From a virus (Duplodnaviria; Caudoviricetes), in the IMG/VR virus record IMGVR_UViG_3300028048_000040, positions 1 through 64,000 of that record: a stretch of 64,000 nucleotides of DNA. The stretch is one strand, 5' to 3'. Positions 11,045 to 15,724 of the stretch are shown here, in pieces (the first letter of the stretch is position 1; each line of letters begins with the position of its first letter). A model generated the notes under the pieces. It was not told the DNA's origin, searched no databases, and saw nothing but the letters and a program-made list of their open reading frames with translations. The position numbers and the translations under genes are program-made.

Positions 11045-12136
11045 TTATTCATTAATATTAGGCCAATTAATAATGTCTTCAAAATCATATTTTCTGCAAG
11101 TCTCTCTATTTTCATAATCTGCTTTATCTTCTATTCCTATAAATTTAAATGGAGGATCTTGAAGAGTAATATCTTTATCCATATATACTATACCTCTTAA
11201 TGGATAACCATTAACCTCATTTATTTCTTCAGTTAATCCGTTAGCATTTCGTACTTGCTCATTTTCTAGTTCTCTGATAGTATTAATCATGAAACAGATA
11301 AAGAGCATGTATATTCTTCTATTACCAAGTATAGCATCTTCTGTATCAATAATAGAATAGTTTCTTGGATCACAATTTATACCTACACATAAAGCAAGGG
11401 ATTTCATAAATCTAATGGATAATTCATTAAGACTGATATCTCCTTTATCTCTTAATACCTCATCAAATTTTTTAAATGCAAATAAAAGAGCATCTTCCAT
11501 AGTAGGTGCACCAAGAAGTATAGCAAATCTATTAATATGAGCATCAAATATTTGTTTAGCAAAATTGAATTGTTGTTGAGTTACAGTAGAATAATTTGTA
11601 TTGTCATACATAAATTTGCTAGTTTTATTCAAGATAGGCACTTTGTTAATTTGATCAATAGTGGCAGTTTGCTGAAAATGAGGAACTATATTCCAGATAA
11701 GCTGTAATCTAAATTCTTCTGCAGTTTTATTATGAAGTTTATTTGCTATAGCAAATACTATGCGATCTAATATAAATTCAGGTAAAATATTATCGTATTT
11801 TGAAGGTCTCCAAGCTTGATTACTTTCGGCACGCGTGTCGAAAGTATTAGTTTCGCATCCTGTTGCGAAAGTACTATTTACTTGAGAAATTTTGAATCCT
11901 TGTGTTAAAGTAACACCACAATTGTTCACTGAAATTCCTTCTGGTAATTTTTCTTTTAAAACTTCTAAGTAGTTAGAACCAAAATTATTAAGTCGTAAGT
12001 AAGTTTTTCCATTTTTGATATCAACCAAACCTAACATTTCAATTGCATCTCTGGTATAAACATAGGTATATGGAATATTATTATGATATTCACAGAACCC
12101 TTTGATACCATCAATTTCTCTTACAACTGTACTCAT
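11045..12136 (-). CDS. BRO-N/antirepressor-like DNA-binding protein
   Basis: The N-terminal half (IDGIKG...AIEMLGL...LPEFILDRIVFAIANKLHNKTAEEFR..LIWNIVP) resembles Firmicute phage antirepressor N-domains. Confidence 0.6.
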   Translation of the reverse strand: MSTVVREIDGIKGFCEYHNNIPYTYVYTRDAIEMLGLVDIKNGKTYLRLNNFGSNYLEVLKEKLPEGISVNNCGVTLTQGFKISQVNSTFATGCETNTFDTRAESNQAWRPSKYDNILPEFILDRIVFAIANKLHNKTAEEFRLQLIWNIVPHFQQTATIDQINKVPILNKTSKFMYDNTNYSTVTQQQFNFAKQIFDAHINRFAILLGAPTMEDALLFAFKKFDEVLRDKGDISLNELSIRFMKSLALCVGINCDPRNYSIIDTEDAILGNRRIYMLFICFMINTIRELENEQVRNANGLTEEINEVNGYPLRGIVYMDKDITLQDPPFKFIGIEDKADYENRETCRKYDFEDIINWPNINE

Positions 12137-12213
12137 TTTACATACCTCCAATAATTTAATATAAAATAGAGGAAGGATTTGATCCTTCCTCTAAATTGTC
12201 AAATCACTTTTAA

Positions 12214-14490
12214 TTACTCATCTAATCTATGCTTCTCGTATCCTTTAGGTCTTAAAGCATCCATGAAAGCTTTGCTATCAACAATCTCAGGATGACCAGG
12301 AACAACCCACATTACTGGACTAGTTCCTTCAGGAACAATCTTCTCATGACACTGATCCCATACCTCATGATCTACATTCATATATTTTACAGGTTTATGC
12401 ATATAGAATGGATCGAAACAAGAAGTCTTAGTCTTCTTATAAGTCATTGGTTTATGAAGAGCTCTAGCAATATCTTGATATTTGAAAGATACTACTACAG
12501 ATCTATTGTTAGATAAAGCTTCCTTAAGAGTTAATACTTCATAAGGCTCATTATATCTGCTCCAATCAGGCATCTCGAATCTATCATAAGCACTTCTAAT
12601 CTGATTTGCTATAATGATTTCAAGATGTACAGAACGACAATGAATCTTTCCTCTAATAACAGCATCTACAAGCTTCATGATAAGCTCGTCAATATTATAT
12701 TGCTTAGTGATATCTTTCTTATCAATAAGATCAGTAAAGATATCTAATGCTTTACCAAGGTCATTATTCATCATCTTAAGATAGAACAGCTCCATATCTT
12801 GAAGCTCCATTAAAGGAATTTCTAATACAGATTCGCTAAGATTCTCTTCAGTTTCAGGAGAGTCTTTAAGCTTATCTCTAATTATAGCAGTAAGAGCATT
12901 AGAGAAATACATTCTAGCTTTAGTATCATCTCCAGATTCTTTATCTATAATAGAAGATATAGCATATTCAGTTCCATCAGGAGACTTGATAGTCATATCA
13001 GTGATATACTCATTATAGATCTCAGTTGTATCATCAGTAGTATCAAACTGACCATTGGAATAGAATATATGCTTAAAGAAGTCACCATCATTCTCAAGCT
13101 GTACATCTTCACCCTTAATGATTAAACTCCACCCATCAAGACTTTCTATATTTGGGAAAGTTTCTTCATTAAGAAGAATAGCATTGGTATCTACACGGAA
13201 GAATTTATAGAAATCCAATACCCAATTGATTGCTCTAATAACAGTTTCTAACAGATGTTTAGCAGACAATCTCATCTGAGTATACTGAGAAGTTATAATC
13301 TCTGTAGCAATACGACCAACATTGATATCTCTATTAGTTCTTGCTAACTCACCATAACAATGTCTACAAATACCTTTACCCATAGCAAAAGATTTGCACA
13401 TAGCAGGAGTTCTAAGGTAAATCCACTTACCTATAAGATTAGTACAATCTTTAGTAATCAAGAACTCAAAACCATTTAACTCCATACGAGCATATCTATC
13501 AATGAAATGCTCTAATACTTCCTTATCTTTAATAAAGATATGAGCAAGATTGTTTGTATGACAATCATAATCCATATCTGGATTTAAGAAAGTATCAATG
13601 TTATTCAGACCTAAGATACGAGAGAATCCACCAGAGTCTCCTACATTCTTCTTAGAGATAATCTGTGCATTTCTTGCAGAATAAGCATCAATATAGAAAT
13701 ACAGAAGATTATCAAGACCACCAGTGATATAAGAAGTATTTACAATATCATGCAAGATACTACCATGACCATCAGGTTTGGTACCAATATTAAATGAATT
13801 TTCTTTCCATTGTCGTTTATTGATACCTTCTTTAGCAGCAAATGGATTTCTTAAACAATGTTCATGCCCCATGATTTTCTTAGAATCCATAAGCAATTCT
13901 ATAGCTCTATCTGCTGCTTCTAATCCTCTATCTTTTACTTCTTCAAGAGGAATATTAGAATAGTCTTTATGAATCAAATCATCATATTCAGGACAAGCAT
14001 CCATCATCTCTATAGTATCTTCCAGATTCAATGTATTAGCGATATAGAAAGAAAAATCGTCTACATCAAGGAAGTTATAGAGACAATCTGCTATGATGTT
14101 ATTCATAAGCACATTGTCCATATTCTCTCTACGTTCTGTGATAAAGTGTTTGTCAATAAACTTCTTGATATGACCACTATTAGTATGCTTAGCAAACACT
14201 AAATGCCATGGTTTAATCTCTCTATCTCCATTGGCAATAATAGCATACCAGAGTATAATATTAAAAAAGTAATCAGTGATACTAAGATCAACAGAATCTC
14301 CATTACCGAAATCAACGGTAATGAACATATGTTGTACATAGTCAGTCTCAATTCCATCCTTCATAATACTGAGAATGCCATCATAATGGTTTCTCCAGTT
14401 TTCTATGACTATATCTTTTGTATGAATAGTCATCTTTTGTCGTTGGACAAGTTCAGTGTACACGTAGTAGTTGTTCAGATTCTCCAACAT
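12214..14490 (-). CDS. rpoC: RNA polymerase beta' subunit C-terminal part (probably non-virion RNAP)
   Basis: Bridge helix (SARNAQIISKKNVGDSGGFSRIL), Zn site (CKS...GICRHCYG), trigger loop (GRIATEIITSQYTQMRLSAKH), VHLEIII. Early promoter at 14591-14598. Confidence 0.9.
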   Translation of the reverse strand: MLENLNNYYVYTELVQRQKMTIHTKDIVIENWRNHYDGILSIMKDGIETDYVQHMFITVDFGNGDSVDLSITDYFFNIILWYAIIANGDREIKPWHLVFAKHTNSGHIKKFIDKHFITERRENMDNVLMNNIIADCLYNFLDVDDFSFYIANTLNLEDTIEMMDACPEYDDLIHKDYSNIPLEEVKDRGLEAADRAIELLMDSKKIMGHEHCLRNPFAAKEGINKRQWKENSFNIGTKPDGHGSILHDIVNTSYITGGLDNLLYFYIDAYSARNAQIISKKNVGDSGGFSRILGLNNIDTFLNPDMDYDCHTNNLAHIFIKDKEVLEHFIDRYARMELNGFEFLITKDCTNLIGKWIYLRTPAMCKSFAMGKGICRHCYGELARTNRDINVGRIATEIITSQYTQMRLSAKHLLETVIRAINWVLDFYKFFRVDTNAILLNEETFPNIESLDGWSLIIKGEDVQLENDGDFFKHIFYSNGQFDTTDDTTEIYNEYITDMTIKSPDGTEYAISSIIDKESGDDTKARMYFSNALTAIIRDKLKDSPETEENLSESVLEIPLMELQDMELFYLKMMNNDLGKALDIFTDLIDKKDITKQYNIDELIMKLVDAVIRGKIHCRSVHLEIIIANQIRSAYDRFEMPDWSRYNEPYEVLTLKEALSNNRSVVVSFKYQDIARALHKPMTYKKTKTSCFDPFYMHKPVKYMNVDHEVWDQCHEKIVPEGTSPVMWVVPGHPEIVDSKAFMDALRPKGYEKHRLDE

Positions 14491-14619
14491 GCTGTTTCCT
14501 CTCCTTTAGAAAAAATTCATAAAATACCCTTTTGATATAATGTGTTGAAAGGTATTAAAAGTTATTATCCTTTCCTCCTTTCTCACTTATATAGTATATT
14601 TCTATTTTTTAGTTTACCT

Positions 14620-14888
14620 AAAAAAAGATAGCCTCGGGATTAAGGCTATCTTTGTGTATAGAAGTACAGAAGTAGTAGAGATTGTATTTAGATGGGATTA
14701 AGCTACTGGCGAGCTTTTTGGAATAACCATGTGATAATAATTTAGAAACGAGTATATTTGTGTGTTGGAATACCATGGGAAAAGGATACCAACAGTCAAG
14801 GAGAATACCACAGTAATGCCACTGTAGTTGTTTGTTTATCCGAGCCATATAAACAAACAGAAGAATATTCCCTACTACCTCTATACAT
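14620..14888 (-). ncRNA. candidate ~270 nt structured non-coding RNA
   Basis: Early promoter 14893-14900; 18-bp 5'/3' closing stem with three G-U pairs; internal hairpins; terminator 14624-14653 plus U run. Confidence 0.65.
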
Positions 14889-14933
14889 ATAAATAGTATA
14901 TAACTGAAAAAAATTTTAATAAGACAATATTGC

Positions 14934-15074
14934 ACCAGTAGAGTCAACAGACTCTACTGGTTAGAGGTTTGTAGTAAAAGAAAGCAGAACTAAGATGAGA
15001 ACTGAAAGGTCATATACTTATAGGGGAAAGTACATGATAAGAAGTATAATAGTTAGGGGTCTATCATCTTCTTT
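14934..15074 (-). ncRNA. candidate pyrimidine-rich late small RNA
   Basis: TACA-N6-TA at 15085-15074, no ORF, several CCCC/CCUUUC/CCUCU tracts, and a 12-bp hairpin at 14934-14961. Confidence 0.4.
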
Positions 15075-15128
15075 ATTTAGATGTAAAAATCTCTCTAGGG
15101 ATTTTCCCTAGAGAGATTAAAAAAGAAT

Positions 15129-15605
15129 TTATCTAACAACTTTAGTCATATCAAATGCTCTTGGAGAAAGCTTAATGAGTTTCTGTTGAGCTTTCTTAGC
15201 ATCTCTACGAACCATGTTATTGTACTTCTTATAAATTCTATCAAGTAACTGACGTTCCTTAATACGATTCTTTCTAAGAAGTTCAAAGTCATTATCACCT
15301 TTCTCACGAGCCATCTGCATTGCTGCAAGCATAACACGACGATCAAGGTCAGCCTGTTTGCTCATACGAACAATAGCTTTACGACCAACTACACCTGCTT
15401 CTTCAAGATATTTAAACTCTTCTGAATTCATATATTCATTTCTTTCAGCTTCATTCATAGAAGATACTCTATCTACAATCAAAGCTTCTAAGAAAGCAGC
15501 AGTATCAGTGATACCTTCTCCACCTTCTACACCTTCATAAGTTTCATCCAGACTATCTACTGTCTGAAGATCTGCACCTTCATCAAGATTTCTAAATAAT
15601 GGCAT
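15129..15605 (-). CDS. hypothetical late protein (possible head protein)
   Basis: AGGAGG SD, late promoter 15663-15674, acidic N-terminus with LDE motifs and basic C-terminus. Confidence 0.75.
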   Translation of the reverse strand: MPLFRNLDEGADLQTVDSLDETYEGVEGGEGITDTAAFLEALIVDRVSSMNEAERNEYMNSEEFKYLEEAGVVGRKAIVRMSKQADLDRRVMLAAMQMAREKGDNDFELLRKNRIKERQLLDRIYKKYNNMVRRDAKKAQQKLIKLSPRAFDMTKVVR

Positions 15606-15724
15606 TGTTAATTACCTCCTATATAGGAATTATTTGCTATAGCAAACACAAGTATAGTGTTTTATTGTAATGTTTTAGAAAGAAAGTTGTAGAGTAAAAA
15701 TTTTTTCAGTTATATACTATTTTT

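Follow-up and report, generated by a model that had tools for sequence, protein, structure and literature searches.

A structured non-coding RNA with its own promoter and terminator beside an RNA polymerase gene of an AR9-like rumen jumbo phage

Results

The window, the whole stretch of 64,000 nucleotides analyzed here, is the first part of the 342-kb genome of an AR9-like jumbo phage from bovine rumen. Within it, a structured RNA unit adjoins the upstream side of a gene for an RNA polymerase beta-like subunit and has the same orientation (Table 1). This 758-aa gene was the anchor for gathering related loci, and the homologues described below were found with it. The polymerase gene has a promoter of its own, which, together with the T-run before it, forms the right-hand boundary of an exchangeable cassette. 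No candidate partner protein is encoded beside the cassette, and the neighboring genes vary independently of it. ARAGORN detected no tRNA or tmRNA at the region, and a blastn search against 50,697 phage records returned zero matches for the RNA.

Table 1. Features of the RNA unit and its downstream neighbor, in window coordinates.
Feature	Position	Strand	Remarks
Phage promoter	14887..14922	-	A/T-rich upstream part, core ATATACTAT at 14901-14893, 6-nt spacer TTATAT
Predicted primary transcript, ~263-267 nt	14620..14886	-	From G+1 at 14886 to the U-tract of the terminator
Closing helix, 5' arm GUAUAGAGGUAGUAGGGA	14869..14886	-	Begins at the predicted +1 G
Hairpin 1, 11 bp	14829..14859	-	Predicted fold
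Hairpin 2, 9 bp	14807..14828	-	Predicted fold; contains G-U pairs
C-rich module 1, UUCUCCUUG	14797..14805	-	Canonical anti-Shine-Dalgarno (CUCCUU); unpaired probability 0.86
Hairpin 3	14764..14793	-	Loop CCUUUUCCC at 14785-14777 is C-rich module 2
C-rich module 2, loop CCUUUUCCC	14777..14785	-	Unpaired probability 1.00
C-rich module 3, CUUAAUCCC	14694..14702	-	Single-stranded; unpaired probability 0.97
Closing helix, 3' arm UCUCUACUACUUCUGUAC	14664..14681	-	Pairs with the 5' arm
Intrinsic terminator	14624..14653	-	12-bp stem, U-run to 14620; loop with C-rich module 4
C-rich module 4, CUUAAUCCC	14636..14644	-	In the terminator loop; repeats the 9-mer of module 3
Second promoter, for the RNA polymerase gene	14584..14612	-	Core ATATACTAT at 14599-14591, G+1 at 14584
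RNA polymerase beta-like subunit gene, 758 aa	12214..14490	-	phrog_3015, E = 2e-40; downstream neighbor of the RNA unit

The promoter of the RNA unit reads TTATATACTAT-TTATAT-G. An initial annotation of the window had placed an early phage promoter at 14900-14893, and TATACTAT is present there in a setting that fits the rule for early promoters of the AR9 virion RNA polymerase, AAATATATATTAT-(6N)-G+1, as given in the AR9 report (PMC5312081). The resemblance comprises an ATATA(C/T)TAT core within an extended A/T-rich element, six bases and G+1, and extends to the genes that the motif precedes, which include an RNA-polymerase subunit gene and numerous small genes of early type; between the two phages, the core is slightly altered (ATATACTAT here, ATATATTAT in AR9). 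Chance does not account for the motif: across the 342 kb, ATATAYTAT is present in 117 copies where 64 would be expected, with a G seven bases past the TAT in 80 of the 117 copies and a T preceding it in 85. Judged by its motif, which is also what assigns the timing, the promoter would be of the AR9-type early class read by the virion RNA polymerase, and transcription is predicted to start at G14886. At the other end, the terminator that had been proposed at 14653-14620 was recovered as a hairpin (14653-14624) followed by a T-run.

We then looked for coding capacity. Minus-strand open frames of 30-109 codons do exist within the unit (a 30-aa frame from an ATG at 14888, and frames of 37, 76 and 109 aa), and one of them might specify a small protein. 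None has a Shine-Dalgarno sequence, although 258 of the 331 phage genes have a strong one, and the earlier statement that no credible Shine-Dalgarno-led ORF lies inside the unit was borne out. Nor is any frame conserved in length or phase across the homologues or in any allele; the indels that separate the homologues measure 1, 2 and 4 nt, i.e., they are not multiples of three. A conserved protein in the 109-aa frame would speak against an RNA gene; that frame begins upstream of the promoter, within the preceding hairpin, is not conserved, and has no Pfam or PHROG match. A protein product is extremely improbable, and from its sequence the unit appears to make none. Rfam returned only sub-threshold chance matches for the RNA region (none for 6S RNA or pRNA at E <= 10), nothing at the gathering score anywhere in the window, and no match for six other cassettes, consistent with a previously undescribed non-coding RNA. 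Two further candidates were rejected: a retron msr/msd (no reverse transcriptase nearby) and a type I toxin (no hydrophobic peptide).

The sense strand folds with a minimum free energy of -78.9 kcal/mol and z = -7.9 (200 dinucleotide shuffles), compared with z = -3.5 for the opposite strand. The minimum-free-energy fold contains every structural element that had been listed for the locus, at the same coordinates: the 18-bp pairing of 14886-14869 with 14681-14664, the 11-bp, the G-U-containing and the C-rich-loop hairpins, and an unpaired stretch. They are laid out around a multi-branch junction with a long unpaired A/C-rich segment. The closing helix is continuous over its 18 bp and has exactly three G-U wobbles, each of which is A-C on the other strand. 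Inspection by eye also gave a loop-loop complementarity of 4 bp (AUGG/CCAU); in phi29-type packaging RNA, mutually complementary loops permit ring formation.

Four C-rich modules lie in loops or unpaired regions of this fold. Their motifs are one CUCCUU and three UCCC, one UCCC being in the terminator loop. Over five cassette variants, UCCC occurs ten times, compared with 3.3 expected from shuffles and 1.8 from the genome rate. The unpaired probability of the motifs is mostly 0.85-1.0 against a whole-RNA mean of 0.46, a difference to be read with the excess of C over G in cassette RNAs, since such an excess alone would leave many Cs without a partner. Against the consensus Shine-Dalgarno sequence of the phage, AAGGAGG, module 1 can pair with AAGGAG and is the only canonical anti-Shine-Dalgarno among the four; UCCC is not the complement of the dominant AAGGAGG site, and GGGA occurs in only 28 of 258 phage initiation regions.

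Structural conservation in relatives had been named as decisive for an RNA at this locus, and the helices are kept in the homologues while the loops drift. The comparison set holds six distinct homologues from three lineages; this leaves little covariation to be seen, and RNAalifold assigns it a slightly unfavorable term (+2.2). The distribution of variable columns is more telling: in the homologue group designated L011, 6 of 118 paired columns vary, compared with 69 of 188 unpaired columns (Fisher p = 3e-11). In the closing helix, homologues differ by U-A to U-G or G-U to G-C substitutions, which preserve pairing on the minus strand only, and relative to the L011 group this helix has a 3-nt insertion matched on both arms. 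Substitutions within the retained helices of the L011 group are U-A to U-G. These patterns point to purifying selection on the helices. The four modules occupy corresponding places in the window RNA and in the L011 group, although the sequence around them has diverged to ~68% identity. Module 1 is retained as AAUCUCCUUUAC in all L011-group homologues, hairpin 3 has a counterpart with the loop UUAUCCC, and the positional counterpart of module 3 is AAAUCCCACA.

Other cassette types extend this picture. In L019, the predicted +1 G opens a closing helix of 28 bp whose wobbles are G-U on the sense strand alone; that of type B runs for 10-13 bp from the +1 G, and type C has none, with a local 5' hairpin instead. 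In every cassette type, the first paired base is the +1 G. Folding z-scores of all cassette variants lie between -5 and -11, and the sense strand is always the stronger. The terminator loops of type A vary, yet each has UCCCA or CCUCCUU. In type C, the stem of a hairpin is kept and its loop is swapped for one with UUCCCAUCC. Three unrelated alleles share a build of paired +1 G, exposed C-rich segment and terminator.

The RNA body is an exchangeable allele and one of several cassettes, two points that the initial annotation had missed. Phages with ~99%-identical flanks bear an unrelated RNA of similar build at the locus, and the window allele and the unrelated alleles are mutually exclusive in two complete genomes; one replacing allele is a 169-nt RNA of different layout. 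The whole module, promoter included, is swapped between genomes in the manner of PeSL-like mobile cassettes (promoter-early plus stem-loop). The break points fall in sequences that recur at other cassette junctions, where a composite of a T-run and GGTAAACTAAAAAATAGA is found again. The RNA has no sequence paralogue in its own genome, in which only the promoter and terminator flanks recur. The swap would probably proceed by recombination in these repeated flanks. Lineages whose RNA polymerase subunit is 66-67% identical lack the cassette altogether. The occurrence of other cassettes also varies from genome to genome; G001, for example, lacks two in tandem.

The unit is also represented in RNA libraries. 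Metatranscriptome contigs from three independent bovine-gut studies cover the RNA body only, spanning 14703-14861, 14682-14863 and 14661-14871. In the X1 run, the depth is 485 over the RNA body against 2-8 over the flanking genes, values that come from contigs and give no strand, ends or true abundance. The first 15 nt and the terminator hairpin are not represented in any of these contigs, nor does a contig run from the RNA into either flanking gene. The RNA runs X3, X4, X7 and X8 each contain 5-7% of the query words and do not enter the contig evidence given here; DNA runs with the locus include X9-X12. Adapter sequence abuts 14861 and 14703 in X1 and 14661 in X5, which may reflect single fragments. 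Promoter, Rfam, reading-frame, helix and contig evidence all support the proposal that the minus strand specifies a free-standing, structured and hitherto undescribed non-coding RNA beside the RNA polymerase gene, with a promoter and a terminator of its own.

Potential targets were sought by searches that covered phage mRNAs only. Complementarity of the RNA to the phage genome is at the level of chance (84 non-self matches of at least 11 bases, the longest of 14, compared with 91 in shuffles), and duplex energies of the four modules against 258 phage initiation regions are no better than those of shuffled modules. The duplicated 9-mer CUUAAUCCC has a single complement in the 342 kb besides the RNA gene. 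This complement falls on the 12-nt leader (GGAGGGGAUUAAG-AUG) of a gene with an early promoter, at genome position 332007(-). In the genome that carries the unrelated type-B allele, the RNA of that allele and the orthologous leader can form 10 bp (UAAUCCCUUC), and the L011-group modules reach only 6-7 bp with the 332007(-) leader. About five chance matches are expected per RNA, so this pairing is a lead and not evidence.

Discussion

We put a probability of roughly one half on the reading that the window RNA is a stable and abundant trans-acting sRNA, carried as an exchangeable allele, whose C-rich modules base-pair with ribosome-binding sites rich in G. Under this model, the virion RNA polymerase would start transcription at G14886 and the intrinsic terminator would stop it near 14620. 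The 18-bp helix, opened by the very first base, and the terminator hairpin would leave neither RNA end free, which would protect the molecule from end-dependent RNases. The scaffold would thereby present four single-stranded modules (UUCUCCUUG, the loop CCUUUUCCC, and CUUAAUCCC twice), whose most likely partners would be G-rich stretches at the ribosome-binding regions of mRNAs from the host, the phage or both; the pairing would block translation initiation early in infection. Two functions had been suggested at the outset. The conserved, exposed C-rich modules favor one of them, an mRNA-pairing regulator; the other, a polymerase decoy, finds neither a 6S-like shape nor an Rfam 6S match.

An unlikely alternative is that the RNA acts on proteins, either because its exposed motifs (CUUAAUCCC twice and the UCCC loops) titrate an RNA-binding protein of host or phage (e.g., of the KH-domain, cold-shock or S1 type) or because the long helix occupies RNase III or a double-stranded RNA sensor of the host. 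The motifs are indeed repeated and placed in loops or single strands, closing helices of 18-28 bp are perfect or nearly so, the RNA appears abundant, and the searches among phage mRNAs came up empty. On this view, alleles would turn over fast because the phage and the defenses of its host are in an arms race, in keeping with the replacement of alleles between 99% relatives and with the presence or absence of other cassettes among genomes. A helix acting as a specific ligand is difficult to reconcile with lengths that range from 28 bp in L019 through 10-13 bp in type B to the lack of any closing helix in type C; no partner protein gene sits beside the cassette, whose neighbors vary independently, and multi-copy C-rich motifs are equally typical of base-pairing sRNAs (PMC2790875). 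We regard it as less probable still that the unit is a functionless by-product of promoter-terminator shuffling, in which arbitrary or decayed sequence has been trapped and is transcribed. Shuffling has a precedent in PeSL cassettes (PMC2839356, PMC4122927) and would account for the exchange of the whole module, promoter included, between ~99%-identical flanks with break points in recurrent sequences; it would also fit the absence of the cassette where the RNA polymerase subunit is 66-67% identical and of the two tandem cassettes in G001. Fast replacement could equally mean that the RNA is dispensable. However, shuffling explains the movement of cassettes and not their conserved content, which includes the strong helix selection in the L011 group (p = 3e-11), extreme folding z-scores in all alleles, module positions held over ~32% sequence divergence, and the convergence of three unrelated alleles on one build.

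The position of the unit, directly upstream of the polymerase gene and in the same orientation, raises the question of a cis-acting leader, attenuator or insulator of that gene, with regulated terminator read-through that would tune expression of the subunit, and a closing helix followed by a terminator recalls a riboswitch aptamer with its expression platform. We consider this very unlikely, and a riboswitch or attenuation leader was rejected: past the terminator, the gene is preceded by a complete consensus promoter, the RNA body is hypervariable or exchanged outright next to a gene that remains 99% identical, the RNA is missing from phages at 66-67% identity, no alternative anti-terminator pairing is seen in the sequence, Rfam has no riboswitch or leader match, and contigs of X1 are ~100-fold deeper over the RNA body than over the gene. 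The closing of 5' and 3' ends by a helix is also common to 6S RNA and to the packaging RNA (pRNA) of phi29, and a gene adjoining that of a polymerase would suit a 6S-like decoy. The pRNAs of phi29 relatives retain their structure while the sequence diverges, much as the RNA does here. A decoy or a packaging/scaffold RNA of this kind is nevertheless highly improbable, and both 6S RNA and a phi29-type pRNA were rejected. Neither has an Rfam match even at E = 10, the fold is a multi-branch junction and not an irregular rod with a central bubble, and the RNA is absent from related phages that retain the polymerase, or replaced by the 169-nt RNA of different layout; pRNA, moreover, is expected in phi29-like podoviruses, whereas the carrier here is a 342-kb jumbo phage.

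The base-pairing reading is drawn by analogy with C-rich-seed sRNAs of Bacillota, such as RsaE/RoxS, the other Rsa RNAs and RNAIII. In S. aureus, RNAIII and the Rsa RNAs bind to Shine-Dalgarno sites and are defined by UCCC motifs left unpaired, together with a hairpin at the 5' end and a terminator (PMC2790875); RoxS and FsrA of B. subtilis work via C-rich regions (PMC8216469). Like the Rsa, RNAIII and RoxS class, the window RNA has its own promoter and a Rho-independent terminator and lacks coding capacity. As in the Rsa RNAs and RNAIII, its 5' end is locked in a helix, and like hairpin 14 of RNAIII, its terminator loop carries a C-rich motif, the others being in hairpin loops and linkers. 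With ~265 nt and several hairpins, it falls in size between RsaE and RNAIII. On the other hand, it has no sequence or covariance-model similarity to RsaE, RoxS or RNAIII in Rfam, and its gene belongs to a jumbo phage of virulent type, with a promoter for a phage polymerase where Bacillota sRNAs depend on a host sigma factor. Unlike the Rsa RNAs and RNAIII, it has a long-range 5'/3' closing helix in place of a local 5' hairpin, and its body is an exchangeable allele.

Among jumbo phages, transcriptomics has revealed 11 sRNAs of unknown function in Pseudomonas phage 201phi2-1 (PMC11512511) and one unconfirmed sRNA candidate in phiKZ (PMC8244752). These, too, are short non-coding units of giant phages with their own multisubunit RNA polymerases. 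They are mostly derived from 5' UTRs and shorter than 250 nt, and one is conserved across genera; in contrast, the window RNA is free-standing and hypervariable, carries C-rich modules, and has no counterpart in those phages. The arrangement of the locus is closer to the PeSL cassettes, which undergo modular shuffling in T4-type phages (PMC2839356, PMC4122927). In both cases, repeated terminator-promoter composites flank small modules that are inserted, deleted or replaced between near-identical phages. The PeSL cargo consists of small protein genes, whereas the cargo here is a structured non-coding RNA under selection, and the phage lineage and promoter type also differ.

As a tentative extension, rumen AR9-like jumbo phages may carry a fast-evolving arsenal of early, polymerase-independent sRNAs as exchangeable promoter-RNA-terminator alleles at several loci per genome. 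Each would have a nuclease-proof scaffold with its own set of exposed C-rich seeds, and the set would match one particular host strain, either in its ribosome-binding sites or in an RNA-binding protein of defense or regulation. RNA cassettes, and not proteins, would in that case be the unit of variation in host takeover and counter-defense among otherwise identical phages. If the modules block ribosome-binding sites, the phage would be using the sRNA strategy of Bacillota from the first minutes of infection, by way of its injected polymerase, and cassette variation would constitute a natural experiment linking seeds to targets.

Little has been charted of the regulatory RNAs that virulent phages encode. 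The window RNA combines apparent purifying selection on its fold with wholesale allelic replacement between near-identical phages, and it can be delimited from sequence alone. The combination of early promoter motif, paired +1 G, exposed C-rich loops and terminator offers an annotation rule for uncultured jumbo phages, and the genome studied here has further ORF-less promoter-to-terminator units with unpaired UCCC, UCCUCC or UCUCCU.

Setting and promoter of the RNA gene

The window covers the initial 64 kb of a virus record that is 342,328 bp long, has a G+C content of 31.6% and is rated complete by CheckV. Pfam and PHROG profile searches showed that the RNA-polymerase beta-like subunits of this genome are split and that its family-B DNA polymerase is divergent; these are marks of phiKZ/AR9-like jumbo phages. 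The public runs holding the window sequence are bovine-gut metagenomes and metatranscriptomes. The RNA gene lies in an intergenic gap beside a polymerase subunit gene (Table).

All elements listed in the initial annotation were confirmed at the coordinates given there, including the early promoter core TATACTAT. The motif around this core is repeated genome-wide, can be extended to a consensus of about GTAAA-N-TTTTTYAG-NN-ATATAYTAT-N5-TG, and precedes many genes with a Shine-Dalgarno site. ATATAYTAT cores occur 117 times (64 expected by composition), with a G seven bases after TAT in 80 of the 117 and a T just before that G position in 85. According to a study of the Bacillus jumbo phage AR9, its early promoters have the form AAATATATATTAT-(6N)-G+1 and serve the virion RNA polymerase that is injected with the genome; in phiKZ-related phages generally, promoters of the virion polymerase are described as extended and A/T-rich, and the start site lies 6 nt downstream in the two that were experimentally studied (PMC5312081). 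The promoter of the RNA has the same architecture as those of AR9 (A/T-rich core, six bases, G+1) and is real and, judged by its sequence, of the early type. Applied to the window, the AR9 rule predicts +1 at G14886, exactly the first base of the helix that closes the RNA. Because a second complete promoter stands after the terminator, the RNA is a separate unit, and a cis-acting leader of the polymerase gene is contradicted.

Coordinates of the RNA gene, its neighbors, RNA-library contigs, and further units
Feature	Position	Strand	Remarks
RNA gene	~14620-14886	minus	
Closing helix	14886-14869 x 14681-14664	minus	18 bp, three G-U pairs
Terminator of RNA	14653-14624	minus	
Intergenic gap with RNA gene		minus	638 nt, between 158-aa and 758-aa genes
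158-aa gene	15129-15605	minus	one border of gap
758-aa RNA polymerase beta-like gene	12214-14490	minus	phrog_3015, E = 2e-40; other border
Second complete promoter	core 14599-14591, G+1 14584	minus	3' of terminator; serves polymerase gene
Polymerase-gene leader	14491-14584	minus	
368-aa ORF	11045-12151	minus	directly downstream of polymerase gene
ORF-less stretch	14935-15085	minus	150 nt
X1 contig on RNA body	14703-14861		contigs carry no strand
X2 contig on RNA body	14682-14863		contigs carry no strand
X5 contig on RNA body	14661-14871		contigs carry no strand
ORF-less tandem pair	G000 (whole genome) ~149,880-150,000 (near 149.9 kb)	minus	promoter scan
ORF-less tandem pair	G000 125,420-125,650 (near 125.5 kb)	minus	promoter scan
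ORF-less unit	G000 300,410-300,535 (near 300.5 kb)	minus	promoter scan
ORF-less unit	G000 325,530-325,821 (near 325.8 kb)	minus	promoter scan; four UCCC
ORF-less unit	G000 172,619-172,850 (near 172.6 kb)	plus	closing helix ~19 bp starting near +1
ORF-less unit L037	G000 133,429-133,640	plus	early-type promoter, unusually G+C-rich ~200 nt, terminator
L044 leader	G000 332,007-332,030	minus	early-promoter gene, 227-244 aa

A non-coding RNA present in RNA libraries

The minimum-free-energy fold contains the closing stem that had been read from the sequence, as well as the terminator, two hairpins of 11 and 9 bp, a further hairpin with a CCUUUUCCC loop and the unpaired UUCUCCUUG. The minus strand folds at -78.9 kcal/mol (z = -7.9 relative to dinucleotide shuffles), and the other strand reaches only z = -3.5. 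Covariance-model searches of the region and the window returned only chance-level Rfam matches, and ARAGORN found no tRNA or tmRNA. The RNA belongs to no described family.

All frames of at least 20 codons lack a Shine-Dalgarno site, in agreement with the initial annotation, and a strong AAGGAGG-type site accompanies 258 of the 331 crude gene calls of the genome. The overlapping 109-aa frame, considered at the outset as a possible conserved protein, has no Pfam or PHROG match and starts upstream of the promoter, within the preceding hairpin. Comparison of the frames of the RNA unit across homologues revealed none of at least 20 codons common to them, and the indels between homologues are 1, 2, and 4 nt. 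A micropeptide gene is contradicted by these Shine-Dalgarno, frame-conservation, and indel tests; a 6S-like decoy and a pRNA-like scaffold were each contradicted by specific tests.

Among the runs in which some of the stretch was detected, eight are listed as gut-sample RNA libraries (six labeled bovine gut). When four of these were compared with positions 13800-15700, three of them (X1, X2, and X5, from three studies) contained a contig covering the RNA body only, 99-100% identical to the window. In X2 and X5 the remainder of the 1.9-kb stretch was not assembled. In X1 this contig has a depth of 485 and the polymerase-gene and 158-aa-gene contigs 2-8, but since depth is a poor measure of level and contigs carry neither strand nor ends, we take from them only presence in RNA preparations well beyond that of the neighbors. 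A stable and abundant small RNA would be expected to produce such a pattern. We have high confidence that this is a genuine, expressed non-coding RNA gene.

Allelic replacement and selection on the fold

Using the polymerase subunit as an anchor, we gathered the corresponding gap from 15 contigs and found three unrelated kinds of RNA within it. To type A belong the window RNA, L019, and the L011 group, whose four distinct sequences are 84-97% alike; across lineages, type-A RNAs are 60-69% alike. Type B (L009, L010) is 169 nt long when counted from the predicted +1 G and 175 nt in the extracted sequence, and type C (L012, L018, L022) is about 200 nt long. The flanks of L009 and L010 are ~99% identical to the window, with identity breaking within the promoter and resuming at the terminator T-run. 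The complete 332,775-bp type-B genome lacks the window-type RNA, and the window's own genome lacks the type-B RNA; they are alternative alleles rather than products of translocation. In phages whose polymerase subunit is 66-67% identical, the gap is 141-324 nt and holds only a terminator and a promoter. These comparisons show that the RNA body is an exchangeable allele.

The alleles have a common build. They fold with z of -5 to -11 vs shuffles, better on the sense strand in every case, and pairing in each begins at the predicted +1 G. In types A and B this base starts a long-range helix formed with the 3' portion of the RNA, and in type C a local 15-bp hairpin. The long-range helix measures 18 bp in the window, 12+3+3 bp in L011, 10-13 bp in L009, and 28 bp in L019, where G-U pairs occur on the minus, or RNA, strand only. 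The closing helices of the window and the L011 group differ by a 3-nt insertion on both arms (AGG opposite CUU) and by U-A/U-G exchanges. The structure is conserved in relatives, a point on which the initial annotation could have failed: in the L011 group 6 of 118 paired columns are variable vs 69 of 188 unpaired (Fisher p = 3e-11), and changes within retained helices are U-A to U-G. The fold is under selection. Formal covariation is sparse for six distinct sequences from three lineages: RNAalifold detected double changes at 10 pairs, yet its covariation term was slightly unfavorable.

Small RNAs of jumbo phages were mapped only recently, without known functions (PMC11512511, PMC8244752): 11 in 201phi2-1, mostly 5' UTR-derived (PMC11512511), and one unconfirmed candidate in phiKZ (PMC8244752). 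In the small-RNA literature compared, we found no description of a long-range closing helix beginning at +1, or of a whole RNA gene replaced allelically between near-identical phages; both are added here.

The cassette is one of several. A scan of all genomic promoter copies for those that do not lead to an ORF with a Shine-Dalgarno site uncovered further promoter-to-terminator units (Table), none of which, L037 included, has an Rfam match. Most contain unpaired UCCC, UCCUCC, or UCUCCU. Compared with a closely related type-B genome (G001), their identity is 78% and 86%, or the unit is lacking there entirely, in which case the flanks are 42 nt apart vs 243. The composite "T-run + GGTAAACTAAAAAATAGA" at the cassette's right edge is repeated at their junctions. 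PeSL promoter-terminator motifs mediate modular shuffling in T4-type phages (PMC2839356, PMC4122927) and show the same pattern of repeated composites, but the cargo of the rumen-phage cassette is RNA.

Exposed C-rich modules and a proposed mode of action

On the transcribed strand the RNAs, type C excepted, contain 17-22% C and 10-14% G. UCCC occurs 10 times in five alleles (3.3 expected from shuffles, 1.8 from the genome rate), every copy in a predicted unpaired stretch; partition-function unpaired probabilities of the motifs are mostly 0.85-1.0, vs a mean of 0.46. Conservation among the single-stranded parts falls on C-rich sequence. Four C-rich modules occur in the same order in the L011 group as in the window RNA, with drift in the sequence around them: a linker (AUUCUCCUUGAC in the window and AAUCUCCUUUAC in the L011 group), a hairpin loop (CCUUUUCCC and UUAUCCC), a second linker (CUUAAUCCCAUC and AAAUCCCACA), and the terminator loop (CUUAAUCCCG in the window; variable but always with UCCCA in the L011 group). 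The L019 terminator loop is UUCCUCCUUUAC, and the 9-mer CUUAAUCCC occurs twice in the window RNA. Within type C, one hairpin keeps its stem and has its loop swapped for another with UUCCCAUCC in it; L012 has an apparent AAGGAG-TTG start that is disrupted in L022.

In Staphylococcus aureus, unpaired UCCC motifs of the Rsa RNAs and RNAIII bind Shine-Dalgarno regions and prevent initiation-complex formation, and their 5' hairpin is believed to stabilize them (PMC2790875); RoxS and FsrA of B. subtilis act likewise via C-rich regions (PMC8216469). The window RNA resembles this C-rich-seed class of Bacillota in design, not in ancestry: like the Rsa RNAs and RNAIII, it has its 5' end locked, ends in a terminator, and exposes several UCCC/CUCCU motifs, one of them in the terminator loop. 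Because its build matches these precedents, we favor a small RNA that would be made from the first minutes of infection, act in trans, and block translation, and by this analogy give that reading a probability of about one half. As to the pairing with mRNA suggested initially, module 1 perfectly complements the phage AAGGAG consensus, but no phage target stands out, either by exact complementarity in the phage genome or by duplex energy among the 258 phage initiation regions. GGGA, the complement of UCCC, is present in only 28 of these 258. GGGGAU(U)-type sites form a minority class. Outside the RNA gene, the complement of the duplicated 9-mer occurs in the genome only at the 12-nt leader GGAGGGGAUUAAG before the AUG of L044, a gene with no PHROG match, and this is within chance expectation.

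The main rival, a sponge or decoy for a protein, would suit the motif repetition and the fast turnover about as naturally. Selection on the helices and modules is difficult to reconcile with a cassette that is a purely passive by-product of shuffling.

Neighboring elements

The region directly downstream of the polymerase gene is plastic too. The window phage has a 368-aa ORF there, unmatched in Pfam and PHROG; relatives whose polymerase is 87-99% identical instead carry a 105-108-aa gene (weak DUF7448) and/or 84- and 69-aa genes, followed by a conserved 515-aa helicase gene.

The polymerase-gene leader, ~90 nt and conserved in relatives, begins with GUGAGAAAGGAGGAAAGG, a strong Shine-Dalgarno-like block that lies 6 nt from the predicted +1 and is followed by no start codon. 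5' stabilizers of the STAB-SD kind exist, and the block may be one of these or a ribosome standby site.

Between the terminator of the 158-aa gene (15118-15088) and the cassette promoter is an ORF-less stretch kept in all relatives with a polymerase subunit at least 87% identical. It folds into hairpins at 15073-15039 and 15037-15010, with C-rich loops GACCCCUA and UCCCCUAU, and a third of 12 bp (14962-14935) without a U-tract; z is -9.35 for 14928-15128. At its start is a TACA-N6-TA motif similar to the late promoter of AR9, AACA-N6-TA/G, and an X1 RNA contig runs from the 158-aa gene through the stretch as far as 14983. One possibility is another small RNA, conserved and stacked on the variable one; an alternative is a 3' UTR element in that position.
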